A DNA stretch of 64,000 nucleotides from Acidobacteriota bacterium. Its GTDB lineage: Bacteria; Acidobacteriota; Thermoanaerobaculia; Multivoradales; J023. Below the pieces are notes generated by a model, which saw only the letters and a program-made list of their open reading frames with translations, searched no databases and was not told the origin of the DNA. Both the position numbers and the translations under genes were made by a program. The first letter of the stretch is position 1. Each line of letters opens with the position of its first letter. Below, piece by piece: positions 144 to 24,337 of the stretch. The stretch covers positions 177 to 64,176 of the forward strand of contig JAJCXQ010000686.1 of the NCBI GenBank assembly GCA_029263355.1. The letters are read 5' to 3'.

Positions 144-269
144 GCAGGTCTCCTCGTTGATGGAGCCGTCAATTCAGCAAGATTGAATTATACCCTTCTA
201 AACCTGTATATTCAATACATTCAGAAAGACAAGGCTGTCGTCGAGGAGAATCCGTTCGGAGGAGTAACC

Positions 270-3200
270 ATGATCCACACTTTATCGTCACGCCGCCCCT
301 CGATGTCCCTCAGGTGGGGATCAACTCTCCTGGCCACCGTTCTTCTGTCGGCAGCTCCGGGACACGCACAGCTACCGGGAAACTCCTGGAGCGGTGAGGG
401 GCCGACGCCGATCCACAACGGGCAGACCGAAGGCATCACCAACAACCCGGTGGCTGGCGCCATCAACACGGTTGCCGCACATCCGACCAACTCGGACATC
501 CTCTATGTCGGGTCGGTCAACGGCGGGATCTGGCGCACAACAAACGCCACCAGCGCGTCGCCAACTTGGACCCGCTTGACGTCCTCCGAAGCTTCACAGT
601 CCATTGGTACGATCGATTTTGATCCAACGGACGGCACCAACAACACGCTCCTCGCCGGCATCGGCCGCTTCAGCAGCTTCGCCTCGGTTGGCGGCAGCCG
701 CTCGGGGCTGCTGCGCACCACCGACGGCGTCAACTTCACCCTGATTAACGGCGGCATGGCGGGGCGCAACATCGTCGGTACGGCTGCACGCGGCACGACC
801 CTGGTTGCAGCAGTCAATATTGCGGACATTTTCAGCTGCGGCAACATCGGGGTCTGGCGATCCACCAACACTGGAGTGAGCTGGACGCAGGTCTTGGGCG
901 GCCTCGCCGACGCTCTCGCCAGCGACCCGAGCAGCACCACCACCCTCTACGCGAGCAAAGTTTTCGGTGCTGCCTGCGGCGCGGGCGTCAACGGCATCTT
1001 CAAGAGCACCGATACCGGCGCCACCTGGGCCAAGGTGAGCACAGCGGCGATGGACGCCCTGCTCAACAACAGCTCGGGCACCAACGTCGACATCGTGGTT
1101 GGCAACAGCAACAACGTCTTCGTCGCCATCGTAAATTCAGGGACCGGAGCCTACGGTGGAGTCTTCCGCTCCGGCAACGGAGGAACAACCTGGACACAGA
1201 TGGACGCTCCTGCGACCGCCGCTGGCACTCTTCACCCCGGTACTCAAGGCGGCACCCACACCTCGATCGCCGCCGACCCGACCAACTCCAACATCGTTTA
1301 TCTCGGCGGTGATCGCCAGGCCAGCCCGTTTCCCAACCCGGTCGGCGCGGTGAACTTCTCCGGCAACCTGGCACGCGGTGACGCGAGCTTAGCCCCGGGA
1401 TCCCAGTGGACGGCCCTAACCCACAGTGGCACCGCTTCGAACTCGTCGCCCCACGCCGACTCGCGCGACATGGTCTTCACGGCCGGCGGCGACCTCATCG
1501 AGACCGACGACGGCGGCATCTACCGCCGCACCTCGCCGACTTCCGCCACCGGCGACTGGTTCTCGCTCAACAACAACCTTCAGGTCACCGAACACCACGA
1601 CTCGGCCTACGACAGTCTCAACGACATCTTGATCGTCGGCAATCAGGATGTCGGGACCGCCGAGCAGACCGCCCCGCTCGGCCTGATCTGGAACCAGGTG
1701 ACCCAGGGTGACGGTGGCGACGTGATCTCCGGCCCCGGCGCCGTCGCTGGCCAAGAGGTGCGTTACTCGAGCTTTCAGAATCTGTCGTCGTTTCGCCGCC
1801 GGACGTTCAATTCCTCGAACACTCTCTTGTCGACAGTCTTTCCCGCTCTCGCCGGTGCCGCCTTCTCCCCGCAGTTCAGGACTCCTATCGCCATCAACGA
1901 GATCGCCCCCAACCGCCTGATCTTCGGCGGCGCCAACGGGGTTTTCGAGTCGCTGAACCGCGGCGATACGATCAGCCAGATCAGCAGTACAATCGTCACA
2001 GATATCTTCAACGGAGGCGGCGCCATCGCCGCGGGCGGAACCGGCAACGCCGACCTCGTCTACGTTGCTGGTGTGGCTGGCGGGACCAGCGCACTCTGGG
2101 CGCGGACGACCAGCGGCGGCGCCTTTTCGAACGTCCAAACCGCCGCCGGCGGCACAGCCATGGTCGGCGCCACCATCGATCCCGACGATGCGACCCATGG
2201 TTTCGGACTCGATTCGGCGAACGTCTACCGCACCACAAACACCGGCACAACCTTCTCCAACGTCACTGGCAACCTGCTCACGCTGAGCCCCGGCACCCTG
2301 CGCTCCATCGAATACATCAACAGCTCGTCGGGTGACGCTGTGGTCGTCGGCGCCGACCGGGGAACCTACATCGCGTCAGACAGCACCTCGTTCAGCACCT
2401 GGACAAAGTTTGGCGCGGGGATTCCGAACTCCCCCGTGTTCGAGCTCACCTACGACTCGGCAGCAGACGTTTTACTCGCGGGCACCATGGGGAGCGGCAG
2501 CTATCGGATGACGAGCCTGTCGGACACCTGCGCCGAGTCGATCGCCCTGGTCACGGGTCAGTGGAAACAGATCTCCTTAGCCTGTAATCCCGGCGGCTCC
2601 AATACTGTCGCCGATGTCTTCGGTGACGACCTCGGCGGGACCTACGACGTTGATTGGGTTGTCTTTCGGTACGACGCGTCGACCCAAACCCAGATCAAAC
2701 TGGCGACCACCGATACCCTAGCCGTCGGCGAAGGCTACTGGATCAGAACAAACCTCGGCTCACAAGTCGTCGACGTCTCGGGGACCGACAATGTGGTGAC
2801 CGACACGCCGCTCACGGGCGTCCTGGCCACCCCACCAGCGGGCTGCGCCAGCTCGGCGGGACGCTGTGGCATGGCCGGAAATCCACACGCCTACGACGTC
2901 TGCTGGGCGGACGTCCTGGTGGACGACGGCGGATTTATCAATGACTTGGCAACGGTCGATCCGGGCGGAATCTGCCAAACAACCGGCGGCGCAACGTGTG
3001 TCATGTCGCGGATCGGCCACAAGTGGACCGGCTCCGCCTACACCACTTTTGACGGCACCACCCCGGGCATGGAAGGTACCTTGGTGCCCTGGGACGCCTT
3101 CTGGATTTCGGCCAACAAGCCCGGCATCGAGCTACGCATACCGGAGACTCCAGGCGGCCCGGGCTTGCCCTGCGGACCACCCGCCAGGACTAGCGATCAA

Positions 3201-3686
3201 GGTGAAGGCTGGTTCATACGGCTGACCGCCGAGTCCGGGCAGCTGGTGGATTCCTTCAACGTTTTTGGTCAGCTTCCCGACAGCCATCGCGGGTACGATC
3301 CGCACGACCTTCAAGAGCTCGCTCCTTTTGGCACCCCGTACCTAACCGTGGTGTTCCCGCACGACAACTGGGGCGATCACGCAGGAGACTACGCATCGGA
3401 CTATCATTTGGCGCGCCCGGCGTCGCAGCCCGACGAGTGGCGATTCGACGTCCGCTCTTCGGAAACCAGTGCCGAGGTGACCTTGCGCTGGGACGGGCCA
3501 AGCTCGCGCCTCGACGGCTCGGTGCTGACCGATGTAGAGACAGGCGAACAAGTGGACGTTTCAGGCGATGGGAGCTACACCTTCGTGATGAACGGCAACA
3601 GTCGAAGTTTCCACTGGGTCTCACAGGCGGCAAGCCAGGGGCTCTTCGCGGACAGCTTCGAGTCGGGCGATACAAGCGCCTGGTAA
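270..3686 (+). CDS. Large secreted BNR/Asp-box repeat protein (~1138 aa) with C-terminal ~430-aa module shared with the 5854..8538 protein
   Basis: ATG at 270 with GGAGGAG RBS; signal peptide (RWGSTLLATVLLSAAPGHAQ); multiple S-x-D/N-x-G-x-T/S-W repeats (GGIWRTTN, STNTGVSWTQV, STDTGATWAKV, SGNGGTTWTQM, TTNTGTTFSNV); C-terminal region aligns with paralog (VDWVVFRYD.../GEGYWIRT; CVMSRIGHKWTGSAYTTFDG; FIRLTAESGQL...LTVVFPHDNW); ends ...FADSFESGDTSAW. Confidence 0.85.
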   Translation: MIHTLSSRRPSMSLRWGSTLLATVLLSAAPGHAQLPGNSWSGEGPTPIHNGQTEGITNNPVAGAINTVAAHPTNSDILYVGSVNGGIWRTTNATSASPTWTRLTSSEASQSIGTIDFDPTDGTNNTLLAGIGRFSSFASVGGSRSGLLRTTDGVNFTLINGGMAGRNIVGTAARGTTLVAAVNIADIFSCGNIGVWRSTNTGVSWTQVLGGLADALASDPSSTTTLYASKVFGAACGAGVNGIFKSTDTGATWAKVSTAAMDALLNNSSGTNVDIVVGNSNNVFVAIVNSGTGAYGGVFRSGNGGTTWTQMDAPATAAGTLHPGTQGGTHTSIAADPTNSNIVYLGGDRQASPFPNPVGAVNFSGNLARGDASLAPGSQWTALTHSGTASNSSPHADSRDMVFTAGGDLIETDDGGIYRRTSPTSATGDWFSLNNNLQVTEHHDSAYDSLNDILIVGNQDVGTAEQTAPLGLIWNQVTQGDGGDVISGPGAVAGQEVRYSSFQNLSSFRRRTFNSSNTLLSTVFPALAGAAFSPQFRTPIAINEIAPNRLIFGGANGVFESLNRGDTISQISSTIVTDIFNGGGAIAAGGTGNADLVYVAGVAGGTSALWARTTSGGAFSNVQTAAGGTAMVGATIDPDDATHGFGLDSANVYRTTNTGTTFSNVTGNLLTLSPGTLRSIEYINSSSGDAVVVGADRGTYIASDSTSFSTWTKFGAGIPNSPVFELTYDSAADVLLAGTMGSGSYRMTSLSDTCAESIALVTGQWKQISLACNPGGSNTVADVFGDDLGGTYDVDWVVFRYDASTQTQIKLATTDTLAVGEGYWIRTNLGSQVVDVSGTDNVVTDTPLTGVLATPPAGCASSAGRCGMAGNPHAYDVCWADVLVDDGGFINDLATVDPGGICQTTGGATCVMSRIGHKWTGSAYTTFDGTTPGMEGTLVPWDAFWISANKPGIELRIPETPGGPGLPCGPPARTSDQGEGWFIRLTAESGQLVDSFNVFGQLPDSHRGYDPHDLQELAPFGTPYLTVVFPHDNWGDHAGDYASDYHLARPASQPDEWRFDVRSSETSAEVTLRWDGPSSRLDGSVLTDVETGEQVDVSGDGSYTFVMNGNSRSFHWVSQAASQGLFADSFESGDTSAW

Positions 3687-3746: not shown

Positions 3747-3914
3747 ATGGATATATTGAAATCTGATCCGGCGCTCGAGACGCCAGCAGCGGGGGAAGCG
3801 AGAGCTGCTGAGCGTCCCTCGCGCCCCTACCAGAAACCTGAACCCAAGCTTTATGGCCAAATCCGTCCCAGCTTGATCGGATCGCCGCCACCGCCGCCAG
3901 GCAAGGGTTTCTGA
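3747..3914 (+). CDS. Candidate 55-aa precursor-like peptide MDILKSDPALETPAAGEARAAERPSRPYQKPEPKLYGQIRPSLIGSPPPPPGKGF (small ORF, unannotated in ORF track)
   Basis: ATG with AAGGTG 4 nt upstream; AT-rich 5' codons in a GC-rich genome; stop 19 nt before the S24/S26-like peptidase gene on same strand; hydrophilic N-part with Y-x4-P-x-L-x-G reminiscent of RRE-binding leader motifs, Pro5 tail; adjacent to PqqD/HprK-like genes. Confidence 0.45.
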   Translation: MDILKSDPALETPAAGEARAAERPSRPYQKPEPKLYGQIRPSLIGSPPPPPGKGF

Positions 3915-3933: not shown

Positions 3934-4536
3934 ATGGGATTGAACATCGCCCCTAGGAACGTCGCGTTGGGGACAGCCGCCTCCGGAGAGATTGCGCAAC
4001 AGCTTCTAGCGCGGGCTTTGCGCGCCGAGAAGGCGGCTCGGCTCCAAGTTCGGGGCCGCTGCATGGAGCCCTTGATTCGCGACGGCGATTGGGTCGAGGT
4101 TCTGCCGCCCGGTGCAGCGCAACACGGCAGTATCGTCCTGGCCCGCAACAGCAGTGTCGTGTTGGCCGCAAGCGGCAGTGACGATCTGGTCTGTCACAGG
4201 GTCATTGCGCGGGACGGCGACAGCGTCTGGCTAGCCGGCGACCACTCGGTGGCGGTTGAAGAACACCTCCCAGAGAGTGTGCTCGGTAGGGTCATCAGCG
4301 TTGATCGAGGAGGCGTGGTGCAACACCTCGACGGACCGGCGGTCCGCGGTCTCGATCGACTCGAAGCCGGTTTGCACCGGCTCGCTTGGCAACATCGCGG
4401 CTCACTCGTGAGCCGCGTGCTGGAAAAGTTCCGGCGGGCGCTTCTGGAGTTGCGCGCTCAAGCCTGGGCAGCGGGCGCCAAACTAGCCAACAGAGCGGGC
4501 ACATCGTCCCGTTTCCGGCCGGCTTCCAGCCGGTAG
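3934..4536 (+). CDS. S24/S26-fold (LexA/signal-peptidase-like) peptidase homolog with Cys at the nucleophile position
   Basis: GRCMEPLIRDGDWVEV resembles SipW/Sec11-type box (SGSMEP..GD..V) with C for S; downstream LVCHRVIARDGDSVWLAGDHS resembles HRV and GDNN boxes; 3' end overlaps convergent HprK-like gene by 79 nt, so C-terminus/start uncertain. Confidence 0.6.
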   Translation: MGLNIAPRNVALGTAASGEIAQQLLARALRAEKAARLQVRGRCMEPLIRDGDWVEVLPPGAAQHGSIVLARNSSVVLAASGSDDLVCHRVIARDGDSVWLAGDHSVAVEEHLPESVLGRVISVDRGGVVQHLDGPAVRGLDRLEAGLHRLAWQHRGSLVSRVLEKFRRALLELRAQAWAAGAKLANRAGTSSRFRPASSR

Positions 4537-5336
4537 CCGGGAATCGACCGACCGAGCCTCACCAAGGCCCGGAATCGATCCCCGGCAGCGGCCCCAGAGC
4601 TCAGGAAACCGCTCTGCCCCACCAAAACGTCTACCAGATCCGGCAACATCAACGGCGAGACGACGCTGTCTTCATGGTCGACAATCTCAGGACAAACGAT
4701 CGCCTGGAGCTCGATGTTAGTGGTGGTCGGCCAGGGTACTGATCTGGTCGCCGCACCACGAGGAAAAGCCACCATGCGGGGGCCATCCTCGCCCGGAGCG
4801 AGCCACACCACATCGTCCGAGAGCACCTCGTGCCCGGCGCGGTGGACATTGCCAAAAATCGTCGACTTCCCGACGCCGCTCGGGCCGGGCAACAGGATCC
4901 CAAAACCATCAACCGCGACGCCAGCAGCGTGGATCCCGAACCAACCACGACTCGCGCCCAACTCGATGAGCATCGGCACGAGGGCCAGGCCGATGAAAAG
5001 ATCCAACTCACCATCGGAAGGGCTCTCGAGGCAGAGGCCACCCCGGCCCTCCGTCACATCACACCAGGCCAGTACCCTCGGCAGCTCGAAGAAGATTTGA
5101 TCCCCCGCTTGCCGAACAGTGAGCGGAGGCTCCTCGACGACCGTCCTCCCCCTCGGCAGCGGCGCCGCTGCTCGCGCTCCGACGCTCACCTCGACCGGTA
5201 AGCCGCTCGCCGCAACCGCACCATGGATGAAGTAGGCCAGGAACGCCTCGATACGCTGATGCAACGGCCTCGGCAGGGGGTCGAAACGAAAAACCAGACC
5301 GGATCCGATCGGGACCACCAGAGAGGCGCGGGTCAT
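4458..5336 (-). CDS. HPr kinase/phosphorylase C-terminal-domain-related P-loop protein (HprK-related kinase)
   Basis: GIHAAGVAVDGFGILLPGPSGVGKSTIFGNVHRAGHEVLSDDVVWL matches HprK C-domain (G.HA..V...G.G.L..G.SG.GKS....G..L.SDD.V); ATGA start/stop overlap with upstream PqqD-like gene. Confidence 0.8.
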   Translation of the reverse strand: MTRASLVVPIGSGLVFRFDPLPRPLHQRIEAFLAYFIHGAVAASGLPVEVSVGARAAAPLPRGRTVVEEPPLTVRQAGDQIFFELPRVLAWCDVTEGRGGLCLESPSDGELDLFIGLALVPMLIELGASRGWFGIHAAGVAVDGFGILLPGPSGVGKSTIFGNVHRAGHEVLSDDVVWLAPGEDGPRMVAFPRGAATRSVPWPTTTNIELQAIVCPEIVDHEDSVVSPLMLPDLVDVLVGQSGFLSSGAAAGDRFRALVRLGRSIPGYRLEAGRKRDDVPALLASLAPAAQA

Positions 5337-5644
5337 GGGGCGTCGACACGCTCGACCAAGCCAAGCTCATGGAGCCGGGTCACGAACTCGAGCAAATCGG
5401 AACTGGCGCGCGAAGCCTCGATGCCGAAGTGCCTGGCGACCGCTTCTCCGACAACCCGGAGCTCGGACTCACCGTCGAGACGGTCCCAGATGAAGCCCCC
5501 GGCCTCCCCCACACCGTAGTAGCTACCCGAGTCGAGATCCAGGATCAGATAGTCGCCGGGAGAGCTTTCGCCGGTTGACGCTTCGCCGCGGACAACTCGA
5601 TCCGTCAAGCTGAAGTTGGCTTCTTCGCCACCATGTGAGTGCAT
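5333..5644 (-). CDS. PqqD-family protein (RiPP recognition element-like peptide chaperone)
   Basis: 103 aa; DYLILDLDSGSYYGVGEAGGFIWDRLDG...SDLLEFVTRLHELGLVERV matches PqqD/RRE pattern (Y..LN.ta..iW.ll.g....e.......l.efl..L...GL); translationally coupled to HprK-like gene. Confidence 0.8.
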   Translation of the reverse strand: MHSHGGEEANFSLTDRVVRGEASTGESSPGDYLILDLDSGSYYGVGEAGGFIWDRLDGESELRVVGEAVARHFGIEASRASSDLLEFVTRLHELGLVERVDAP

Positions 5645-8554: not shown

Positions 8555-9685
8555 TTGCTCGCTGCACCGCGAGGCCCATACACTTCGCAGGTGGTCTTGC
8601 AAGTGTCCGTTGCCCCGCGGGGTCCATCAGCGGCCCGATACAGTTCTATTGAGCGACAACTGGTAGAACTGGTCGCGGCCATGACAGGTCGAGACGAGGC
8701 CTTCTCGCAGCAATGCGAGGAGGTCCGGAATTGGGAGCGTCTGCTCGAATCCGCGCTGGAGCACGGCGTCGCGGGTGTTCTGATGCAGCGCATCGCGGAC
8801 ACCGGCATTAGCCTACCGGCAAAACCTCGCGAGGCGATTGAGCAACGTCTCGCCGTCGACCGCCTGTGGCATCGCCACATGACGGGGGACCTCAGGCAGG
8901 TCCTGCAGGCGTTCGCGGAAGACGGGTTACATACCGTGACCTTGAAAGGACCGGTGCTGAGCGAACGTCTCTACCCACGGGCAGCGCTGCGTGCTTCGGG
9001 AGATCTCGACCTGTTGGTCCGCCCCGCGGACATGGCGCAAGCCCGGGAAACCTTGATCCGCATCGGCTATTCCCCCAGACCAGGAGCACCCCTTCTTCAC
9101 GCCAGCGTCTTCGACCACTCCGGTGGCGGCAATGTCGACCTGCACTATCGCGCCTCCGACGGCTTCGCCACAACCCTGGAGGCCGAAAACCTCGTCACCC
9201 GCTCGATCCCCTACGACACGGCGGACGCGGGAAGGGCGTGGATTCTGGCGCCGGAGGACGAATTCCTCTATCTCGCCGTTCACGCCGCGCGTCACCGATT
9301 TTTGCGACTACGCTGGCTCTACGATCTACATCTTTTTGCGCAGCATCATCCCGATCTCGCCTGGGAGACGATTGCCATCCGGGCCAAGGCGCACCACGTT
9401 CAACGGGCGGTTTCAACCACCTGCGAAGCGCTCGAAAGGCTGCTGCCGGAAACGCTTCCGGAGGCGGCAAAAGCCCACCTGCGACAAGAGCCCGTTCGGT
9501 CACGCATCGTGATGGCCGTGGCGTCGCTCTCTGCCGTGGCCGACGACAGCGTTTGGCGCAAAAGCTACCGAGTCTTCTGGCACGTCACCTATCACGCCCT
9601 CCTCGGCGAAAGCAGCGTCGCCAGCATCCGGTTCTGGTGGCAGTCCCTAGCGCAGGCTGCAGCGCGGCTCTGGCGCACGCGCTAG
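8555..9685 (+). CDS. Nucleotidyltransferase-family protein (PF14907-like 'uncharacterised nucleotidyltransferase')
   Basis: KGPVLSERLYPRAALRASGDLDLLVRPADMAQARETLIRIGYSP and DLHYR... fit the PF14907 pattern; start uncertain (TTG 8555 or ATG 8681). Confidence 0.65.
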   Translation: MLAAPRGPYTSQVVLQVSVAPRGPSAARYSSIERQLVELVAAMTGRDEAFSQQCEEVRNWERLLESALEHGVAGVLMQRIADTGISLPAKPREAIEQRLAVDRLWHRHMTGDLRQVLQAFAEDGLHTVTLKGPVLSERLYPRAALRASGDLDLLVRPADMAQARETLIRIGYSPRPGAPLLHASVFDHSGGGNVDLHYRASDGFATTLEAENLVTRSIPYDTADAGRAWILAPEDEFLYLAVHAARHRFLRLRWLYDLHLFAQHHPDLAWETIAIRAKAHHVQRAVSTTCEALERLLPETLPEAAKAHLRQEPVRSRIVMAVASLSAVADDSVWRKSYRVFWHVTYHALLGESSVASIRFWWQSLAQAAARLWRTR

Positions 9686-11686: not shown

Positions 11687-12100
11687 AACGTTCTAGTTTT
11701 TTCTAGCCGTTACTGACGTTTTACAACTAACGTTTCTGTTCATCTTGAACGTTATTGACATTTTACCAACAACCTTCAAGGCCAGGCGGAATAACTAATG
11801 ACGTTCTGCCAGTAACGCCACGGCCCAACTTGATCGTTATTGGCATTCTACTGAAAACGGTCAGGGCCAAGCCTGAACGCTATTGGCAAACGGCAATAAC
11901 AACTCAGTCGCTCTTGATCGTTATTGGCATTTTACCCAGTAACGTCACAGCGGATCTTGATCGTTATTGGCAAATTGCCAACAACAGCTCAAACGAACTT
12001 GATCGTTATTGGCATTTACCCAGTAACGATCCGGCTGGTCCTGAGCGTTATCGGCAAATTGCCAATAACGATCGAGACGTACTCAAACGTTATTAAAGCT
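11687..12100. repeat. AT-rich array of imperfect direct repeats built on a palindrome CGTTATTGGCAA-A-TTGCCAATAACG (12-bp arms), abutting the tRNA-Ser 3' end
   Basis: Copies of CTTGATCGTTATTGGCA at ~11829, 11914, 11958, 12000; near-perfect 25-bp palindrome at 12046..12070; variants CGTTATTGGCATTTTACCCAGTAACG; local GC ~45% vs ~65% flanks. Confidence 0.7.
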
Positions 12101-12105
12101 CTATG

Positions 12106-12195
12106 TGGCGGAGAGAGTGGGATTCGAACCCACGGACCACGTGAATGGTCAACGGTTTTCAAGACCGTCGCTTTCGGCCGCTCAGCCATCTCTCC
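12106..12195 (-). tRNA. tRNA-Ser (anticodon UGA), type II with long variable arm, CCA encoded
   Basis: 90-nt cloverleaf: acceptor GGAGAGA/TCTCTCC, anticodon stem ACGGT/ACCGT loop CTTGAAA (UGA), variable arm TGACCATTCACGTGGTCC, T-arm GTGGG-TTCGAAT-CCCAC, 3' GCCA. Confidence 0.93.
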
Positions 12196-12216: not shown

Positions 12217-13549
<1,333 letters not shown>

Positions 13550-13747: not shown

Positions 13748-14710
13748 ATGTCCGAATCCCTCGCCTTGAGCATCGTCGTGCCGATCTTCAACGAGCGCGA
13801 CAACTTACAAGATCTCCACGCTGAGCTGATGGGTGTCTTGGTCGATGGTTATGATGGCTACGAAGTGATCTATGTCGACGACGGCAGTACCGACGGCTCG
13901 GCAGCTATCCTGGCCGAGCTTGTCGCAAGCGAACCTACTGCGATCGCGGTGTTCCTGCGTCGCAACTACGGCCAGACCGCCGCCTTCGCAGCGGGCTTCG
14001 CTCAGGCGCGCGGAGAAATCGTGGTGACGATGGACGGTGATCTACAAAATGATCCCAAGGACATCCCGAACCTGCTCGCCAGGTTGGACGAAGGGGCCGA
14101 CGTGGTGAGCGGTTGGCGAGTGGATCGACAGGACACTCTGATACGGAGGCTGCCATCAATGCTGGCCAACCGCCTGATCTCGGCGGTGACCGGGGTTCAC
14201 CTGCACGACTATGGTTGTTCGCTCAAGGCCTATCGTTTGGAGATCTTGAAGGACGTGCGTCTATATGGCGAGATGCACCGATTCTTGCCAGCGCTGTGCC
14301 ACTGGCAAGGTGCGACGATCGCCGAGGTCGAAACCCGCCATCGCCCCCGTACCCGGGGCATCTCGAAGTACGGCATTGGCCGCACGCTGCGGGTGATCAT
14401 GGATCTGCTGACCGTCAAGTTCCTGATGAGTTTCTCTACCCGGCCCTTACACGTTTTCGGCAGTGTAGGCTTGATCTCGCTGGCGCTCGGAATGGCGGTC
14501 AACCTTTACCTCACTTTTCAGAAACTGGTACTCGGTATGGCGATCGGCAATCGGCCGTTGTTGCTGCTCGGTGTATTGTTGCTGTTCACTGGGTTTCAAT
14601 TCATGAGTATGGGCCTGCTGGGCGAGATGCTGGCCCGCATCTACCATGAGTCTCAGCAGAAGCCCATTTACTCGATTCGACGGATACTCTCGGGGACACC
14701 CAAAGTATGA
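13748..14710 (+). CDS. GT2 polyprenyl-phosphate glycosyltransferase (GtrB/ArnC/Dpm1-like)
   Basis: LSIVVPIFNERDNL...YEVIYVDDGSTDGS...TMDGDLQNDP; two C-terminal TM helices typical of GtrB-like enzymes. Confidence 0.88.
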   Translation: MSESLALSIVVPIFNERDNLQDLHAELMGVLVDGYDGYEVIYVDDGSTDGSAAILAELVASEPTAIAVFLRRNYGQTAAFAAGFAQARGEIVVTMDGDLQNDPKDIPNLLARLDEGADVVSGWRVDRQDTLIRRLPSMLANRLISAVTGVHLHDYGCSLKAYRLEILKDVRLYGEMHRFLPALCHWQGATIAEVETRHRPRTRGISKYGIGRTLRVIMDLLTVKFLMSFSTRPLHVFGSVGLISLALGMAVNLYLTFQKLVLGMAIGNRPLLLLGVLLLFTGFQFMSMGLLGEMLARIYHESQQKPIYSIRRILSGTPKV

Positions 14711-15405
14711 CCACTGTGCGTAGCTCGGAATATGCCGAGAAGGGCGACTATCACCGCCATCTCGATAAGAACTGGCGCTTCTACCCGATTTATGTCGCCA
14801 AGATGGCACGGGTACGCGAGCAACTTGAAAAACTGCCGGCAGACGCCAAGATCGCCGACCTGGGTTGTGGCGAAGGTATCCTGGTGGAAGAGCTACGAGA
14901 CCAGGGACGCGATGCGATCGGCATCGATCTCAACTACGAGTCTGAAGCTGTCATCAAAGATGACATCACCCAGACTCGGTTCGACAGTGAGTCATTCGAC
15001 GCCATTCTCTGTCTCGACGTGCTGGAGCATCTGCAGTTCGACGACCAAGTCAAAGCACTGAGTGAAATCTATCGCTTGCTGCGGCCAGGAGGTCGCTTGA
15101 TCGCGACGCTGCCCAACTTGGCGCATTTTTCGTCACGCTTCTCGTTCTTGCTGCTGGGACGGCTGCTGCGAACCTCGGAGGTCGAGCGCCACCCGGGGGA
15201 CCGTCCGATCGCCGAATACATTGATCTGATCGAGTCCAACTTCGTGATCGAGCACCGCAAAGGGATCTTCCCAACCTTCCCTTTGACACTCTACTTGACC
15301 GTCAAGATCCCCAGCAAAGTGGTGGGATGGCACCGCTTCCTCAACGCGTTTTTCGCGGTGCCCGGCTGGTGTTTCTTGAACCTGCTGGTCTGCCGCAAGA
15401 AATAA
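14707..15405 (+). CDS. Class I SAM-dependent methyltransferase
   Basis: IADLGCGEGILVEEL (motif I), LRPGGRLIATLPN; ATGA overlap with upstream GT2. Confidence 0.8.
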   Translation: MTTVRSSEYAEKGDYHRHLDKNWRFYPIYVAKMARVREQLEKLPADAKIADLGCGEGILVEELRDQGRDAIGIDLNYESEAVIKDDITQTRFDSESFDAILCLDVLEHLQFDDQVKALSEIYRLLRPGGRLIATLPNLAHFSSRFSFLLLGRLLRTSEVERHPGDRPIAEYIDLIESNFVIEHRKGIFPTFPLTLYLTVKIPSKVVGWHRFLNAFFAVPGWCFLNLLVCRKK

Positions 15406-15409
15406 CGCG

Positions 15410-17368
15410 TCACTCAACGTCGAAACGGATCGGCTCGATGCTCATCGGTAACGGGTAGAACATCGGATCACCTTCGAAGCGAACCACGACACGGACCTCG
15501 CCGATTCCGGGATCGTCTGCTCCCTCACCCGTGGCTGTGATCACATAACCCTCCCAGCCCGCGGTCAACGCGTCGCGACGGAAACTCTTCGCCACGTCGG
15601 TACGATGGACGCCGAGCACCAGCTCACCACAGATGGCGCCTCGACGATCGAGCACCAGAACCTCGGCAACCCTAGCGCCCGACCTGTAAGCCCAACCTCC
15701 AAGGCGAACAAAGTTCGCGCTGATCCGAGTCGAACGGTCGACGTAACCCGCCATGTCCTCTAGTAGCCGATCCGCCAGACGCTCAGGCTCGATCAGTTCA
15801 CCGAGACGCAGGGGCCAGGGGCGATCGAACGGCACGTGCCCCGTGCGCTCGAGGTAGGCGCGACGCATCCACACATGCTCAGGCCAGGGCGCGACTGTCG
15901 CCTCGATGATCTCGTTGTCTGGCACGCCGTGGACCACTGCAAGGGCAGCGACAGGCTGCCGTGCGCCCCGCGCCACAAAACGATCCACCACCGGACCTCC
16001 GCGAAGGTGCATCGCCGTCGCCAGCCCTGCCACCAACGCCAACAGCAGAACCGCACCTACGACCCGAACAGGCGGCTGGGAAGGCCGATAACGCCACGCC
16101 AGCAGCCCGATCGAGGTCAGCAGGCCGATCCAGAACAGTGCCGCCAGCGAGCCGTAACGAGACGACATCGCTTGCGCTTCGCCGAACCCGGAACGGCCGA
16201 CGGCAGTCATCAACGCGTTACCTAAACCGTAGGCCTGAATCATCAACCACGGCGCCATCTCGACACGTAAAGACTTAGAGCTGAACGATAGCAGGACACA
16301 GCCCGCGACCACCAAGCCACTGGCCGCGATCGCGATCAGCCCGATCGTCCGTGCGGTCACCAACTCGCCGGAGAAGATCGAGCCCAGATAAACCGCCGCG
16401 TAACGTAACAACGACGTGGGATGACGAGTCTGTAACTCAGGGTGGTAGGGCAGCGACTCGTAGGACAGAGCGAAGAGAGCGACCACCAAACCCATTCCGC
16501 CGCCGAGCAGTAACAGGCGACGCCAGCTCAAACGCAGAAACACCCCGCCAGCGATCAACACCGGCCACAGAATCAAGTGAGTGCTGTGGCTGAAGGCGGC
16601 GGCGATGCCGAACAACAGCACCGGCCATACCGCCCACATCGTGCCGATCTCGGCACGCCGAGTCAAAGCAACGATCGCAGCAACCGCCAGCACATTGGCA
16701 AAGAACCAAATACTGCCACTGAATCCCATCGCCACGTTATGCGCCGCAACTGGCGAAAAACAGAACAACGCCACACCCAAGCCGAAGGTGACCTTGCCCC
16801 AAGGGCTGGCACGAAGTGCCGATGGCAGAGCCGAGACCAAAAGCACCAGTTCCAAGGTCAACAGCAGCAGAGAGAAAAATGTCAGGCCAAGATTGTGGCC
16901 GTTGGTGAGCAGGATGTTGAGAGCGTAAACCAACAACGGCAGTGAAGCGCGGTGCTCGTTCGACTTCAGATTCAGCCAATGCACCGGATCAACCGACAGG
17001 CCACCGCCTTCAGCTTCGCCGCCAACTTCGATCATGTCGCCCAGGATGGCGTAATAATCGTTGTGCTGCATTCGGCCGAAGCTCGAAAATTCGCCTAGGT
17101 AAACGACGATCGGCGACACAATTATCAGCCAGGTCACCATGCTGACGAGCAGCTTCGATCGCCGAACTGCGGGCACAGATCCCGAATGAGATTCACCACG
17201 TGGCGAGTCGACACGTGGCGAGTCAGCTTGTGACGAAACGTCTTCAGAGGACATCATGAGCTCGATGCATCGGGTCTTGGCGTGGCGGATGGACGAATCG
17301 TCAGCGGGCAGGCGGGGGTGGGATGCCGATGCAGTGTAACCACCGCTTTCGAAAAGCGTCAATAGCAC
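15410..17368 (-). CDS. Polytopic membrane protein with C-terminal soluble domain (putative glycosyltransferase-like; paralog of 17382..19190); true start probably ~17260
   Basis: ~10 TM helices; strong similarity to adjacent paralog (PVAAHNVAMGFSGSIWFFANVLAVAAI... / HSTHLILWPVLIAGGVFLRL); 5' region contains the duplicated promoter-like motif. Confidence 0.6.
   Translation of the reverse strand: MLLTLFESGGYTASASHPRLPADDSSIRHAKTRCIELMMSSEDVSSQADSPRVDSPRGESHSGSVPAVRRSKLLVSMVTWLIIVSPIVVYLGEFSSFGRMQHNDYYAILGDMIEVGGEAEGGGLSVDPVHWLNLKSNEHRASLPLLVYALNILLTNGHNLGLTFFSLLLLTLELVLLVSALPSALRASPWGKVTFGLGVALFCFSPVAAHNVAMGFSGSIWFFANVLAVAAIVALTRRAEIGTMWAVWPVLLFGIAAAFSHSTHLILWPVLIAGGVFLRLSWRRLLLLGGGMGLVVALFALSYESLPYHPELQTRHPTSLLRYAAVYLGSIFSGELVTARTIGLIAIAASGLVVAGCVLLSFSSKSLRVEMAPWLMIQAYGLGNALMTAVGRSGFGEAQAMSSRYGSLAALFWIGLLTSIGLLAWRYRPSQPPVRVVGAVLLLALVAGLATAMHLRGGPVVDRFVARGARQPVAALAVVHGVPDNEIIEATVAPWPEHVWMRRAYLERTGHVPFDRPWPLRLGELIEPERLADRLLEDMAGYVDRSTRISANFVRLGGWAYRSGARVAEVLVLDRRGAICGELVLGVHRTDVAKSFRRDALTAGWEGYVITATGEGADDPGIGEVRVVVRFEGDPMFYPLPMSIEPIRFDVE
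17332..17363 (-). promoter_or_regulatory. Copy 2 of the 32-bp promoter-like motif (TTGACG-N18-TACACT) upstream of the membrane-protein gene
   Basis: CAGTGTAACCACCGCTTTCGAAAAGCGTCAAT (plus strand) vs copy 1 CAGTGTATCCACCGCTCGCGAAAAGCGTCAAT, 28/32 identical. Confidence 0.45.
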
Positions 17369-17381
17369 ACCGGATCCGTGG

Positions 17382-19190
17382 TTAGTTGCCGCCCTCAGGA
17401 CCGATGAGCAGTTGCTCAGTCACGCTCTCTCGGGTCGGCAACGGGTAGAAGAGAGGATCCCCGGCCAACCGCACCCAGGACCTGAGCTGCCCAGACTTGG
17501 AATCGACTCGGGCATATCCTTCCCAGCCGGCAACCAACGCCTCGTCTCCTACCCGCTGTCGCAGCTCCGGACGGTGAATGCCGGTGAATATCTCGCCCCG
17601 ATAGACCCCCCCTTTGTCCAGAACGATGACTTCGGCCACCGCCGACGATCGACTGTAGGCCCAACCGCTCGGCCGAACAAAGCCGCCGTGGAGACCCTGA
17701 GTCAAGCGCTCGAATTCGCCCTGGAGCTGAGGATGGGGCTGATCACTCAAGAGTGAGGCTTCGATCCGCTCACCTAGACGCCAACGATATGGGCGATGGA
17801 ACGGCACATGGCCAGAGGCCTTCATGAAGTTGTAGACACGGTACATTTGGCGCGGCGCGGGGGTGACAGCACGGCTGAAGATATAGTCGTCGGCGATACC
17901 CAAATGCAACGCCAAAGCCGCGACAGGCTGGCGACTTCCGCGTGCCAGAAAGCGGTCCATCACCGATGCCCCTCGAACATGCATCGCGACCGCCGCGCCC
18001 ACAGCCAGGCTGATCAGTCCCACCGCGACACCGACTCTGCCCAACCTCGAGTTGGGGCGCAGTCGCCAGCCTATGATGCCGAAAGGTATCAACAAGCCTA
18101 CCCAGAACAGAGCGGCCATCGACGCATAACGCGACGCCAACGCCTGCTCCATGCCGAACCCAGCGCGCCCGATAGCAGCCATGGCAGCGTTGCCAAGGCC
18201 ATAAAGCTGGATCATCAGCCAAGGCGCCAGGTCGGTACGCAAGTCCTTTGAGGGCAGTGTCTTCCATACCCATGGAAGACAGACCATGAGTGCCAGACTA
18301 ATGACGCTGCCAAGCATAGCGACACTTCCCACCACTCGAGCGAGGTTGACATCCGCACTGAACAGCCCTCCAAGATACACCGCCGTGTAGCTCAGCAGCG
18401 TCGATATTCCGCGGGTGGTCGGGGCAGGATGACTGGCGAGAGATTGGTAGGTAAAAACAAAGAGAGCCAGGATCCAAGTCGCGCCGGCGGCCAGGAGAAT
18501 CAGCCGGCGGAACCTCAAACGAAGAAACAGGGCTCCGACGAGCACAGCAGGCCACAACATCAGATGTGTGCTGTGGGTGAAGGCTCCCAAGGTACCCAGC
18601 AACAACACTGGCCACAGCGTCCAGTAGCTACCGCGCTCAGCCCTCCAACTCAAGACAGCAATAGCGGCAACGGACAACGCATTGGCAAAGAACCAAATGG
18701 ACCCGCTGAAGCCCATTGCCACGCTGTGCGCCGCAACCGGCGTAAAACAAAACAGCGCCAGCGTAAAACCGAAGCCGGTGCGTAGCCAACCGTTCGCTCG
18801 CAGGTCCGTCGGCAGCAGGCGCACCATGATAACCAGAGTGACCGCCAACAAGAGAAGCGAGAAGGCTGTCAAGCCGAGGTTGTGACCATCGGCTAGAGCC
18901 ATGTTCGCAACGTACACCAGCACCGGCAGGCTGACTCGATGTTCATTGGCTTTGAGGTTCAGCCAACGCGCCGGCTGGTACGAGATCTCCTCGCCCTCGA
19001 CAATACGATGCAAAATACCGTAGTAGTCATTACCCTGAAGCTCACCAAATTCTGGGACCTTGGCCAGGTAGACGGTCAGAGGTAAGAAGATGACGAGCCA
19101 TGTAAAGACGCTTAGACTCCAGGTCGCCGCACGACGCGGATACAGACTCGTCAAAACAAATTGGGTCCATTGGACAGAATGTTTCGTCAT
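17382..19190 (-). CDS. Polytopic membrane protein with C-terminal soluble domain (paralog of 15410..17368)
   Basis: PVAAHSVAMGFSGSIWFFANALSVAAIAVL..., HSTHLMLWPAVLVGALFLRL; C-terminal domain also conserved (AGWEGY...GDPLFYPLP). Confidence 0.65.
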   Translation of the reverse strand: MTKHSVQWTQFVLTSLYPRRAATWSLSVFTWLVIFLPLTVYLAKVPEFGELQGNDYYGILHRIVEGEEISYQPARWLNLKANEHRVSLPVLVYVANMALADGHNLGLTAFSLLLLAVTLVIMVRLLPTDLRANGWLRTGFGFTLALFCFTPVAAHSVAMGFSGSIWFFANALSVAAIAVLSWRAERGSYWTLWPVLLLGTLGAFTHSTHLMLWPAVLVGALFLRLRFRRLILLAAGATWILALFVFTYQSLASHPAPTTRGISTLLSYTAVYLGGLFSADVNLARVVGSVAMLGSVISLALMVCLPWVWKTLPSKDLRTDLAPWLMIQLYGLGNAAMAAIGRAGFGMEQALASRYASMAALFWVGLLIPFGIIGWRLRPNSRLGRVGVAVGLISLAVGAAVAMHVRGASVMDRFLARGSRQPVAALALHLGIADDYIFSRAVTPAPRQMYRVYNFMKASGHVPFHRPYRWRLGERIEASLLSDQPHPQLQGEFERLTQGLHGGFVRPSGWAYSRSSAVAEVIVLDKGGVYRGEIFTGIHRPELRQRVGDEALVAGWEGYARVDSKSGQLRSWVRLAGDPLFYPLPTRESVTEQLLIGPEGGN

Positions 19191-19236
19191 GTCTCGCTTT
19201 GATGAGGGCCAGGCTGAAATTATTGGGATAACGACT

Positions 19237-19253
19237 TATGCTTGAAAAGCATA
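19237..19253. promoter_or_regulatory. Perfect dyad TATGCTT-gaa-AAGCATA in divergent promoter region
   Basis: 7-bp inverted repeat with 3-bp spacer in AT-rich intergenic region between 17382..19190(-) and 19393..(+) operon. Confidence 0.35.
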
Positions 19254-19392
19254 TACGGTTCATGCCGTGTCTCCGTCACAGTTCCGACTTGGCGCTGTAG
19301 TCCGGGATACCGTCATCTGGGATACCGTCATCCGGGCTGCCACCAACCGACCCCAATCCTCCGGGACTAAAAACCTCGAGCTTGTTTCGACT

Positions 19393-21183
19393 ATGTCTTC
19401 GCTACCTGAACCTGAACGTCTCGCCATGCCACTCGCCGTCTGGCTGGCGGTTGCCGCCTACACCAGCAGCCAGCTCGACCCGGCTGGCAAAGCAGAAGGG
19501 GCATTCCTCGGGTTTTTGATCGCGGGTGTCGTCGCGGCGATTGCAGCGATCGGATCTCGGACCCCTGGACGCAGGACATCACCAGAGCTGGCGTTGACGG
19601 CTCTGCTGTCTACCGCAACCGTCTGGATCGCTTATCAGGGGCCTTCACGGGGTGCTGTGGTGTCGGTGATTTTGGTCCTCGGGTTGGGTCTCAGCACCGC
19701 GCGAGCCCTCTTCGATGGCGGTGGGCGATGGCGACTCGTGGACCGGCTCGATCCCGGTATCTCAGTACCGATCGCCCTCGGCTGCCAATGGCTGATGCGC
19801 GGTGACCTGCTGCTGGCGCCTCTGCTCGAGACCCGGTCTCTGGTCAGCTTGCTGATACTGCCAATGGTGGCTGGCGGTTCGATCAGCGTTCTGGCCAGCC
19901 GCTTTGGTGTCCAACGAGCGGTGCTCGCCGGCGGACTGGTGGTGGTTCTCGCACCGGGTTGGACGCTGACCTCGACCTTTGCGGTTGCAGCCTTGGCAGC
20001 GGGCACACTCATCGCTGACCGCAATAAATCCAGCGTTTTACGGTGGGGGGCCGTCGCCGGCCTCGTTTTGTTGCCACTGTGGAGCCTGCCGAAGGGGTTA
20101 TTGATGGTGCTCGCGGCGATAGCGACCACCGGCCTAGCCATCGCTCCCCTGCCGCTGTTGACCATCGCCGCTGCATTGGTCGCGATCATGAGTCCACAGA
20201 TGCAGAGCCCGAGAAGCGCCTTGCACGCCTGGGCTGGCGGCGCGGTGCTGTTGGTTCCGGCAGCTATCATGGCGCCGGCCGATGGACGCGGCCAGATGCG
20301 CCTGGGTGCCATCCTGGCATTGGCTGCGGCACTGATCTCACCCCACCAGGATGCGATGGCAGCCGGCGTCGCGGTCGCCGCACTTGGCACACCGATCGGC
20401 GGCGCCGTCGCCACCCTTCAGCGAGCTTGGTGCGCAACATTGGTGATTGGCACAGCGCTACTCAGTGCCTATCCCTGGGTGCGGCGTGATCCCCTCGAGG
20501 ACCTGATGGCACTGTTCGGTTGGCACACTGAAGCATTCGCGGTGCTGATGGTTGTGAGCGGTGTCGTCGGACTCGGCTTGTTGTTGGATTTGTGGCGCCG
20601 CACCTCGCCGCGTTGGGCGCCGCGCCCCGGAATCCTCGCCGCTGTGCTGCTCGCCATCGCGCTGCTGCTCGGCAACGGCGTGTTGGACATCAGCTCCGTG
20701 TCACATCGCGGGTTCGCTCCGACCGACGTCCCAATCAACAGCTACAGCCCGGTCAACCTCGACGCCGCAGCCACAACATGGCAGAAGACGTTCTCCGAGT
20801 CACCGATCACCACCCAGACGATAGCCGGACTGACGATAGCCGGACTGACGATAGACAGTCACCTGATTCGCGGTAGCCAGCTGATTCCGGGAACGACCGT
20901 TGCAACTGTCGAACTGCTCGGACCCAAAGGCGAAATCCTGGCAGAATGGCCTCTGCGGGCCAACGCCGAAACGGGAGAATGGTCTTCGGCTCGGGACGAT
21001 CTCGTGGCGCCTTCACATTGGATCACCCGGGTCGCCCCCGAAGGCACCTTCTTCGCCCGTAGCTACCGTGCCCGCTTCGAGCCTGCCAAGCCGCTAGAAG
21101 CGGTTCGCTTGAGAATCCGACGCGCTGCCGACCTGCCGCAAAAGACAGAGCTAAGGATCGTCCGGTTGGAGATTCGGCAATGA
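19393..21183 (+). CDS. Polytopic Ala/Leu-rich membrane protein with C-terminal soluble domain
   Basis: ATG 19393 (MSSLPEPERLAMPLAVWLAV...); >10 predicted TM segments; contains tandem peptide repeat TIAGLTIAGLTID; ATGA-coupled to downstream gene. Confidence 0.6.
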   Translation: MSSLPEPERLAMPLAVWLAVAAYTSSQLDPAGKAEGAFLGFLIAGVVAAIAAIGSRTPGRRTSPELALTALLSTATVWIAYQGPSRGAVVSVILVLGLGLSTARALFDGGGRWRLVDRLDPGISVPIALGCQWLMRGDLLLAPLLETRSLVSLLILPMVAGGSISVLASRFGVQRAVLAGGLVVVLAPGWTLTSTFAVAALAAGTLIADRNKSSVLRWGAVAGLVLLPLWSLPKGLLMVLAAIATTGLAIAPLPLLTIAAALVAIMSPQMQSPRSALHAWAGGAVLLVPAAIMAPADGRGQMRLGAILALAAALISPHQDAMAAGVAVAALGTPIGGAVATLQRAWCATLVIGTALLSAYPWVRRDPLEDLMALFGWHTEAFAVLMVVSGVVGLGLLLDLWRRTSPRWAPRPGILAAVLLAIALLLGNGVLDISSVSHRGFAPTDVPINSYSPVNLDAAATTWQKTFSESPITTQTIAGLTIAGLTIDSHLIRGSQLIPGTTVATVELLGPKGEILAEWPLRANAETGEWSSARDDLVAPSHWITRVAPEGTFFARSYRARFEPAKPLEAVRLRIRRAADLPQKTELRIVRLEIRQ

Positions 21184-23381: not shown

Positions 23382-24337
23382 TGACCGCCATCCCACCGAA
23401 ACTGAGTGTCATTGTCCCCACTTTAGGGTGGAGCCGGTGGCTGACCGACTGCCTCGATGCCCTACGCCGGCAGACCGACGATCTCGAAATACTGCTCGTC
23501 AGCCAGGGCGAGGGACGGCAACAAAGCCGCAAACACCGCGCCGAAGAACTCGCCGATGTGATTCTACAACTCGATGAAAACACCGGTTTCGCCACCGCCA
23601 ACAACCGTGGCCTGACCGCAGCCCGCGGCGACTACATTGCCACCGTCAATGATGATGCGATCGTTGAAGACGGGTGGTGTGACGCCCTTCTAACCGCCCT
23701 CGACAACGACCCTAGCCTCGCCGCGGCCCAGGGCATCAATCTCATGCTCGACGAGCCGTCACGGATCGATGGCGGTGGCCTGGCTTGGAATCGTCATTGG
23801 CAGGCCGTTCAGCTCGGTTACAACAAACCTCTCGCGACCTTGCCTGCCACGCCGACGGAAATTTTCGGTGTCTCGGCGACGGCGGCAATCTACCGCCGAT
23901 CTGCTCTCGAAAAAGTCGGTGGTCCCAAGTTCGAGGCTTTCGACCCACAGCTTTTCGCCTATTACGAAGACGTTGACCTCGCCTGTCGTCTAAGGGCTGC
24001 CGGCTATCGTTCGCAACGGGTACCGGTAGCACGGGCCCGGCATGCGGGTTCGGTCAGCGGCAGAAAGTTGGTGGGCGGCAGCCGGAGGTTGATCTACCGC
24101 AATCGGCATCTGGTGCTAGCTCGGCTACTGGGGCGCGCTTATTGGACCAACCTGCCACAAATCCTGGCCCGGGACGCTGCCGATCTATGGCAGGCTGCAA
24201 CAAGCCGAGATCGCTTTGCGGCCCTCGGCATCCTAACGGGTCTAGCCGGCGCCCTGCGTCACGGACTGCGCTTCGCCCATCTCGGTCCGACGACGATTCC
24301 GTTGGCGGAGATGAAACGATTCCAAGTCGACCGATGA
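23375..24337 (+). CDS. GT2 family glycosyltransferase (rhamnosyltransferase-like)
   Basis: LSVIVPTLGWSRWLTDCLDALRRQT...NTGFATANNRGL...DYIATVNDDAIVEDGW; start ATG overlaps previous stop (ATGGTAG). Confidence 0.85.
   Translation: MVVTAIPPKLSVIVPTLGWSRWLTDCLDALRRQTDDLEILLVSQGEGRQQSRKHRAEELADVILQLDENTGFATANNRGLTAARGDYIATVNDDAIVEDGWCDALLTALDNDPSLAAAQGINLMLDEPSRIDGGGLAWNRHWQAVQLGYNKPLATLPATPTEIFGVSATAAIYRRSALEKVGGPKFEAFDPQLFAYYEDVDLACRLRAAGYRSQRVPVARARHAGSVSGRKLVGGSRRLIYRNRHLVLARLLGRAYWTNLPQILARDAADLWQAATSRDRFAALGILTGLAGALRHGLRFAHLGPTTIPLAEMKRFQVDR

Follow-up and report, generated by a model that had tools for sequence, protein, structure and literature searches.

A 64,000-nucleotide stretch of DNA from an Acidobacteriota bacterium (GenBank assembly GCA_029263355.1, contig JAJCXQ010000686.1, positions 177 to 64,176 of the forward strand), referred to here as the window and used for all coordinates unless a locus is named, carries near its start a gene for a 200-residue peptidase of the LexA/signal-peptidase type. 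An earlier, sequence-only reading had proposed that this protein bears a cysteine in place of the catalytic serine, with a histidine as its partner, and that it could serve as a dedicated leader peptidase for a small peptide encoded next to it. The gene and its three conserved boxes are as follows:

3934..4536 (+), peptidase, 200 amino acids; the open reading frame (ORF) is taken at its greatest possible length, from the first start codon that follows a stop
4054..4089 (+), nucleophile box G41-R-C43-M44-E-P46-L-I-R-D-G51-D52; the Cys43 codon is TGC at 4060-4062
4192..4200 (+), C87-H88-R89 box, within L-V-C87-H88-R89-V-I; His88 is the predicted general base
4237..4260 (+), G102-D103-H-S-V-A-V-E109 box; G102-D103 at 4237-4242, G-D-H-S to 4248, E109 at 4258-4260

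The peptidase has the S24/S26 (LexA/signal-peptidase, clan SF) fold. The Pfam model Peptidase_S24 (PF00717) matches it at 29.5 bits (cut-off 23.3); the Pfam S26 match lies just under its threshold, and the NCBIfam models for signal peptidase I and LexA both match weakly. An AlphaFold2 model, computed from a 24-sequence alignment (mean predicted local distance difference test score (pLDDT) 85.8; predicted template modelling score (pTM) 0.80), has its beta core at 35-131, preceded by a helix (residues 8-30) and followed by two long helices (135-189). Searched against the PDB with Foldseek, the model retrieved, in order, LexA C-domains (6a2s, 3k2z, 1jhf), lambda cI, UmuD', human SEC11C/A, Staphylococcus aureus SpsB, and Streptococcus pyogenes SipA, and the LexA/UmuD/cI matches extend over ~98 aligned columns with a target-normalised TM-score of 0.6-0.68. 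A profile built from 51 diverse relatives places human SEC11C (E=1.3e-9) and SEC11A (E=6e-9) ahead of SpsB and LexA. The peptidase belongs to a large family without a specific curated model: a word-indexed search found 24 close homologs, and a profile run exhaustively matched 16,535 cluster representatives at E<=1e-3 (2,976 at E<=1e-10). Pattern scans of metagenome and genome collections yielded few close loci.

No membrane anchor is visible in the peptidase, whose maximum Kyte-Doolittle hydropathy over a 19-residue window is 1.02; values above 1.6 occur in just 17 of 163 relatives. Its helices are amphipathic and Arg-rich. Since it has no hydrophobic segment, the protein is predicted to be soluble, and it is presumably cytoplasmic. 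As the sequence-only reading had stated, there is no DNA-binding N-domain: no helix-turn-helix or other DNA-binding domain matches the peptidase, and a single helix (residues 8-30) precedes the core. A LexA-like linker with an Ala/Cys-Gly self-cleavage site is also absent, there being no conserved A-G.

Met44 is annotated as the start in 8 of the 24 homologs from the first search and in 19 of the 163 relatives overall. A true start downstream of Cys43 was considered and rejected, as translation upstream of Met44 in two loci with this miscall (L002 and L031) gives an open, conserved N-terminal frame, ARRLLARALEADKPARLQVRGSCMEP (..LLARAL..RL.V.G.CMEP); the open frame and its conserved N-terminal helix indicate that the Met44 starts are gene-calling artefacts. 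At the C-terminal end, the final 26 codons of the peptidase overlap a convergent kinase gene by 79 nt (4458-4536). The same convergent overlap measures 82-169 nt in other loci (L002, L026, L027), and the peptidase stop codon coincides with a conserved Tyr codon of the kinase. The C-terminal “RPASSR” was examined as a conserved functional tail and discarded, because it mirrors, on the reverse strand, the kinase motif YRLEAG, and this motif is kept even in loci without gene overlap. The C-terminal tail of the peptidase is probably unstructured read-through, to judge from a pLDDT of ~61 in the model. Between two core strands, an 8-residue insertion, approximately VVLAASGS (in N-S-S-V-V-L-A-A-S-G-S-D-D; residues 72-79, 4147-4170), is absent from all 23 close homologs and has a low pLDDT (68).

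The catalytic positions of the peptidase align with those of SEC11A in one block of the family-profile alignment: Cys43 with Ser56, His88 with His96 (IVHRV), Asp103 with Asp116 (GDNN), and Glu109 with Asp122. Reportedly, the SEC11A triad consists of Ser56, His96, and Asp122. The nucleophile box aligns with S-G-S56-M-E-P...G-D of SEC11A and G-E-S-M-D-P of SpsB, and G102-D103-H-S-V-A-V-E109 aligns with GD116NNAVDD122 of SEC11A. Structure entry 9rjb carries Ala at SEC11A Ser56, the residue aligned with position 43. The catalytic Lys of SpsB (YVKRV) aligns with His88. The motif assignments of the sequence-only reading are therefore borne out: the boxes are of the S26B/SipW type, the cysteine stands at the nucleophile position, His88 occupies the general-base position as in the endoplasmic reticulum- and SipW-type enzymes rather than the Lys of LexA and LepB, and the GDHS box, which had been likened to GDNN, supplies the counterpart of Asp116.

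Conservation was counted over 163 proteins aligned to the family hidden Markov model, of which 144 cover position 43; the 19 that lack it are called from Met44. Position 43 is Cys in 75 of the covering relatives, Ser in 68, and Gly in 1. The remainder of the constellation is nearly fixed, with His88 and Arg89 each in 161/163, Asp103 in 157/163 (and Glu in 4 more), Met44 in 160/163, Pro46 in 162/163, Gly51 in 153/163, and Asp52 in 159/163. Position 109 is Glu in 70 and Asp in 58 (acidic in 128/163, 79%). The ~100 best family matches are mostly Cys-type and the more distant ones Ser-type, but the two states are nonetheless interleaved: parsimony on a rough 140-sequence neighbour-joining tree requires at least 13 Ser/Cys changes, compared with ~47 when the states are shuffled. 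The four nearest relatives of the window protein (P0002, P0003, P0004, and P0025) are of the Ser type, with codon TCG, and the Cys-type loci all use TGC. From these sequences, Cys43 is a conserved trait rather than a sequencing error. The sequence-only reading had named three observations that would count against it, namely a true start downstream of the nucleophile box, the presence of neither Ser nor Cys there, and a different predicted fold; instead, the N-terminal 40 residues are conserved, the position carries Ser or Cys, and the AlphaFold2 model is S24/S26-like. Where the other catalytic residues are intact, a position restricted to the two nucleophilic residues Ser and Cys is what marks an enzyme as active, and the peptidase is accordingly likely to be an active Cys/His enzyme.

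A second cysteine precedes the predicted base. Position 87 is Cys in 105/163 relatives, otherwise V, L, A, or I, and corresponds to Val95 in SEC11A; Cys87 is read as a pocket-lining, clade-marking residue. A metal site formed by Cys43 and Cys87 is unlikely, as 14 relatives combine Ser43 with Cys87, while a regulatory Cys43-Cys87 disulfide is possible.

Upstream of the peptidase gene lies a small ORF that the sequence-only reading had picked out as a candidate precursor, and which proves to belong to a conserved family with a lasso-type recognition motif for the RRE, the recognition element of RiPPs (peptides that are synthesized ribosomally and modified post-translationally):

3747..3914 (+), candidate precursor, 55 amino acids, MDILKSDPALETPAAGEARAAERPSRPYQKPEPKLYGQIRPSLIGSPPPPPGKGF; a conserved small ORF in 8 loci
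3828..3857 (+), lasso-type leader motif Y28-Q-K-P31-E-P33-K-L-Y-G37, that is, Y(-17)xxP(-14)x[L/P](-12)xxxG(-8)
3879..3911 (+), predicted core G45-S46-P-P-P-P-P-G-K-G-F; the register is taken from the lasso leader rule, with Y at -17

Precursor homologs are present in every well-assembled close locus, mostly just upstream of the peptidase gene; L001 differs in that the homolog is found upstream of PqqD, with the peptidase elsewhere in the same locus. The ORF is already called as a gene in L013 and L027. Searching with a precursor profile recovered at least 31 small proteins (37-114 amino acids) as one family, with variable, low-complexity, charged N-terminal halves and a C-terminal half with the consensus R-P-Y-x-K-P-x-x-x-x-x-G-x-I-x-P-S-L-(Q)-L-G-S-P-P-x-P-P. 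The pattern Y..P.....G.I.P.L.GSPP.PP runs across the family. In a seven-sequence alignment (A4), the Y, P, and G of the leader motif are invariant, as is G-S-P-P-x-P-P (7/7), which is near-invariant in the 31; 18 of the 31 terminate right after PP. No clean precursor ORF was identified in L004 and L005. In L004, a precursor-like stretch at ~8960-9120 (+), SSIEPSLGGRPPAQ, follows a stop codon and lacks a start codon, and may be what is left of a precursor gene that has decayed, or one that was mis-assembled, in that metagenome-assembled genome (MAG).

The lasso leader rule comprises Tyr at -17, Pro at -14, and Leu at -12, with Gly at +1 (PMC10368454). At -2, lasso precursors have Thr, or Ile/Val in the phosphorylated lasso peptides of Bradymonadales, Acidobacteriaceae, and Sphingomonadales (PMC10368454). 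When the conserved Tyr is taken as -17, 6/7 aligned precursors have Leu at -2 and an invariant Gly-Ser at +1/+2; position -12 is Pro in the window precursor and Leu in L001, L015, and L026. In the window precursor, this register runs Y28, P31, G37, L43, I44 and then G45, S46, so that by analogy with lasso leaders the cut is predicted between I44 (3876-3878) and G45. Ser46 (+2) is the sole conserved hydroxyl of the core and a candidate phosphorylation site. The core GSPPPPPGKGF contains no acidic residue, hence no Asp/Glu at positions 7-9, and thus cannot form a lasso.

The genes around the precursor and peptidase are as follows:

183..3686 (+), large secreted Sortilin/BNR-like protein, 1167 amino acids, directly upstream of the precursor; weak Sortilin-Vps10 match
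4458..5336 (-), HPr-kinase-related P-loop kinase (ScmC-like), 292 amino acids; weak matches to Hpr_kinase_C, HprK_rel_A/B, and ScmC
5333..5644 (-), PqqD-family RRE (leader-binding) protein, 103 amino acids; PF05402 at 54 bits
5758..8538 (+), second large secreted protein, 926 amino acids, with TIG and GEVED domains, between the PqqD and nucleotidyltransferase genes
8555..9685 (+), NTP_transf_5 nucleotidyltransferase, 376 amino acids; PF14907 at 159 bits

These are followed by DUF218 and Cds6_C genes. In related loci, the kinase homologs have a precomputed match to ScmC (PF27840), and the kinase is syntenic in 9 loci. Among NCBIfam models, the PqqD protein comes closest to NF033536, for the lasso PqqD chaperone (E=1e-10, below cut-off). 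A PqqD RRE protein and an HPr-kinase-like kinase adjoin the precursor in 9/11 independent close loci. The cassette of precursor, peptidase, kinase, and PqqD is found in L001/L003 (a Candidatus Multivoradales MAG, Acidobacteriota), L002, L004, L005, L015/L016, L026, L027, L028, and L031, as well as in the window. NTP_transf_5 is frequent but not universal in it (L002, L005, L006, L027, L028, L029, L030).

Homologs of the 1167-residue protein lie upstream of the peptidase in L001, L004, L015, L026, L027, and L028. The 1167- and 926-residue proteins share a C-terminal module of ~450 amino acids with conserved Cys pairs, and both proteins cross-match to the same ORFs in other loci. Both finish in or near F-A-D-[SG]-F-E-S-G-[DN]-x-x-A-W, and homologs of the module flank the cassette in most related loci.

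Pfam scans of 37 window ORFs showed neither a B2 protease (Transglut_core3) nor an Asn-synthase-like lasso cyclase. B2 is likewise absent from the annotated flanks of L001, L015, L026, L027, L028, and L031, and no cyclase was found in the annotated flanks of the close loci; the lone Asn_synthase match seen, in L031, accompanies GATase domains inside a glycan locus. Among 30 other large window ORFs scanned with Pfam, there was no radical SAM gene, and 7 had no Pfam match whatever.

Ser-type relatives, for which public annotation offers just “signal peptidase I”, “S24/S26 family peptidase”, or hypothetical, occupy related settings. In L029 (655-6816), an HPr-kinase-like gene and a 66-residue ORF precede a Ser-type member, which is itself followed by a 1077-residue C25-peptidase-like protein. 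The ORF, a lasso-like precursor (YxxPxL-type), contains F-Y-S-K-P-V-L...T-V|L-G-T-G-C, corresponding to Tyr-17, Pro-14, Leu-12, and Thr-2. In L030 (3529-11957), a Ser-type member is located between PqqD and radical SAM genes, in a cluster that also holds NTP_transf_5, an ABC ATPase, a fusion of radical SAM with ScmC, another three radical SAM genes, and a precursor rich in Cys that starts M-K-T-W-S-K-P-Q-L (WxxPxL-type). No lasso cyclase is visible in L029 or L030. Other relatives are fused to further domains: NTP_transf_5 (P0140), sulfotransferase (P0083, with a Cys-type peptidase), GNAT (P0125, P0153, and P0161), and, among P0088/P0090 and P0061, DUF192 and solute-binding (SBP_bac_5) domains. 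Lasso clusters contain B2-nucleotidyltransferase fusions, as well as kinase, nucleotidyltransferase, and sulfotransferase accessories (PMC8498205). The activities fused to the peptidase are exactly the tailoring functions found alongside B2, or joined to it, in those clusters.

Taken together, the sequence comparisons make it rather probable that the peptidase is dedicated to leader removal in a RiPP-like cassette that is related to lasso clusters but has no cyclase. In this model, the PqqD RRE protein would bind the 55-residue precursor through the Y(-17)xxP(-14) leader motif, and the HPr-kinase-like enzyme would phosphorylate Ser46; NTP_transf_5, where present, may extend the modification of the core. 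The Cys43 thiolate, activated by His88 (which Glu109 and Asp103 would orient), could then attack the Leu/Ile(-1)-Gly(+1) bond. The peptidase would thereby take the role of the lasso B2 protease, removing the leader and freeing a short proline-rich G-S-P-P-x-P-P peptide. Of the dedicated leader peptidase put forward by the sequence-only reading, the context stands, with both the cassette and the fusions in its favour; it is from these that we infer cleavage of the neighbouring precursor itself. Catalytic activity, substrate, cut site, order of steps, and modification chemistry all enter the model as predictions.

A number of observations weigh against this model. The kinase and PqqD reach their curated families only below threshold, and the cassette comes without an exporter. 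In Thermoanaerobaculia-like loci, the large secreted protein is an equally persistent neighbour. Close relatives also occur in unrelated contexts, one (L014) by a Pup ligase and DnaE and another (L017) fused to a solute-binding domain, which indicates that the family is not strictly tied to the cassette. Precursors with ..SLQLGSPP.. have a spacing of 18 rather than 17, which leaves the cut site uncertain. Type I signal peptidases cut after small residues at -3 and -1, a rule that the predicted L/I-G site misfits. Finally, a near-invariant core is atypical for antimicrobial RiPPs. It suggests that the product is conserved, with a signalling or cofactor-like role, and is not a toxin that varies.

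Other explanations place the same peptidase in different roles. It could be an active enzyme with another substrate, for instance the adjacent large Sortilin/BNR-like proteins, or a housekeeping enzyme, with PqqD and the kinase forming a separate unit. The large secreted protein does lie directly upstream in six related loci as in the window, the C25-like protein of 1077 residues follows the Ser-type relative in L029, and some relatives lack the cassette. Such a role is nonetheless unlikely, because the peptidase has neither a signal peptide nor a membrane anchor while the large proteins carry N-terminal signal-like sequences, because L031, L005, and L030 hold the cassette without the large protein, and because the fusions are to peptide-tailoring enzymes and not to secretion components; in L001, moreover, the precursor adjoins PqqD while the peptidase remains in the same locus. 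Alternatively, the enzyme could be a transpeptidase which, like a sortase or butelase, forms a thioester with the N-terminal part of the precursor by cutting before a G-S-P-P-x-P-P tag, and passes the acyl group to an amine. A nearly invariant GSPPxPP C-terminus behind a variable N-terminal part is what a recognition tag would look like, the Cys clade is large, and thioester intermediates favour aminolysis. On the other hand, the nearest relatives switch freely between Ser and Cys, the variable part is low-complexity, charged, and leader-like, the YxxP RRE motif directly precedes the proposed cut as in lasso leaders, and no acceptor was identified, which together make transpeptidation distinctly unlikely.

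Loss of activity has also to be considered, in that the peptidase might be an inert peptide-binding scaffold that presents the precursor to the kinase and nucleotidyltransferase. Replacement of Ser by Cys could be read as loss of function, and inactive members of the fold exist, such as SipA of S. pyogenes, where Asp replaces the Ser and Gly the Lys (PMC4049620). This is hard to reconcile with a position 43 confined to Ser and Cys, with H88, R89, D103, M44, and P46 each conserved in at least 96% of relatives, and with a position 109 that is acidic in 79%. In addition, the Ser90Cys mutant of the Escherichia coli leader peptidase is reportedly still active, and an inert scaffold is very improbable. 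A LexA/UmuD-like self-cleaving regulator would explain why the best Pfam model is S24 and why LexA C-domains are the best single-sequence PDB matches, but it can be set aside with little hesitation: there is no DNA-binding domain, a 35-residue helix alone precedes the core, no Ala/Cys-Gly linker site is present, the base is His and not Lys, and the family profile favours SEC11 over LexA.

Further features lie beyond the cassette. Glycan-biosynthesis genes (GT2/GT4 glycosyltransferases, methyltransferase, epimerase, carbamoyltransferase) are found near family members in the window (13748-26288), in L031 (11815-20165), and in L017 (2246-7963), where they adjoin a lone family member rather than a cassette; this hints at a link of the cassette with cell-surface polysaccharide or glycosylation loci. 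Four consecutive window ORFs at 15410-23381 (652, 602, 638, and 733 amino acids) have no Pfam match at E<=1e-3. A tandem repeat array at 11827-12094 (period 42/84 bp, ~3-6 copies, 74-80% matches) adjoins a tRNA-Ser(TGA) at 12106-12195 (-), upstream of a seryl-tRNA synthetase gene at 12217-13548 (-). The PADLOC defence-system models gave no meaningful match.

The peptidases of clan SF (LexA, UmuD, and the type I signal peptidases) are textbook serine enzymes, and to our knowledge the sole precedent for a Cys nucleophile on this fold is an engineered Ser90Cys leader peptidase. Searches of a paper library turned up nothing that connects S24/S26 peptidases with RiPPs, no account of natural Cys variants of clan SF, and nothing relevant on PF14907 or SynChlorMet. 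It is conceivable, though we hold this only tentatively, that the Cys-type clade represents the first natural Cys-nucleophile lineage of clan SF and at the same time a new RiPP-like pathway. Such a pathway would keep the leader, RRE, and kinase logic of lasso peptides, would have exchanged B2 for a signal-peptidase-fold Cys/His enzyme, and would have lost the cyclase; its product would be a conserved, phosphorylated, possibly phosphoglycosylated or nucleotidylated Gly-Ser-Pro-Pro-x-Pro-Pro signal or cofactor-like molecule, not an antibiotic. If this is true, clan SF becomes a mixed-nucleophile fold, as the chymotrypsin clan is, and since close relatives switch between the two residues, the family would provide a means, found in nature, of studying how Ser and Cys chemistry differ on a single scaffold. 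The findings also point to an unrecognised class of RRE-dependent leader peptidases that lies outside current RiPP genome-mining rules, and to a family of cyclase-less, lasso-derived cassettes, present in uncultured bacteria of Acidobacteriota-like and other kinds, whose proline-rich product is unusually conserved.

Among known systems, the S26B enzymes (Sec11, SEC11A/C, and SipW) share the fold, the order of the boxes, the His base, and the G-D...D/E acids with the window peptidase. They differ in that the latter has Cys43 for Ser, is predicted to be soluble without an anchor, has one extra N-terminal and two extra C-terminal helices, and is encoded in the context of a peptide-modification cassette rather than of protein secretion. 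The S24 proteins (LexA, UmuD, and lambda cI) resemble it in the PF00717 match, in structure, and in the G-x-S/C-M box, which recalls their G-D-S-M, whereas their Ser/Lys dyad is replaced here by Cys43/His88, and the DNA-binding domain and self-cleavage site are missing. The E. coli LepB Ser90Cys enzyme is a laboratory mutant of a Ser/Lys enzyme, while the Cys here is natural, has His as its partner, and is conserved in no fewer than 75 cluster representatives.

PQQ and mycofactocin biosynthesis combine a PqqD-type RRE with a precursor whose nearly invariant core gives a conserved small product. The cassette is similar in its RRE and invariant core, but is without radical SAM and has other tailoring enzymes and another peptidase. 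From SynChlorMet clusters (ScmC/ScmD/radical SAM), the window has ScmC-like and PqqD proteins, both as weak matches below cut-off, and no radical SAM gene among its scanned ORFs; a SynChlorMet-type cluster does house the Ser-type relative in L030.

The closest parallels are with lasso peptides. Lasso B2, a transglutaminase-like Cys protease that works with the B1 RRE protein, would do the job proposed here for the peptidase; both have a thiol nucleophile and both occur fused to NTP_transf_5-type enzymes, but their folds are unrelated, so that the peptidase would be a non-homologous replacement. Of the features of a lasso cluster, the leader motif Y(-17)xxP(-14) and the RRE are found in the window, whereas B2, the cyclase, and the acidic core residue are not. 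Phosphorylation in known lasso clusters is the work of HPr-kinase homologs, which, assisted by B1, act on a Ser of the linear precursor, and a nucleotidyltransferase, sometimes fused to B2, adds hexose to the phosphate (PMC8498205, PMC10368454). Ile/Val at -2 is found in such clusters of Acidobacteria and Bradymonadales (PMC8498205, PMC10368454). The phosphorylated or phosphoglycosylated lasso clusters (paeninodin, pseudomycoidin, Bradymonas bsf) thus have the same PqqD B1, HPr-kinase homolog, and nucleotidyltransferase as the cassette, which for its part has no B2, C, or D (exporter) and carries as its core a near-invariant, seven-residue proline-rich peptide.

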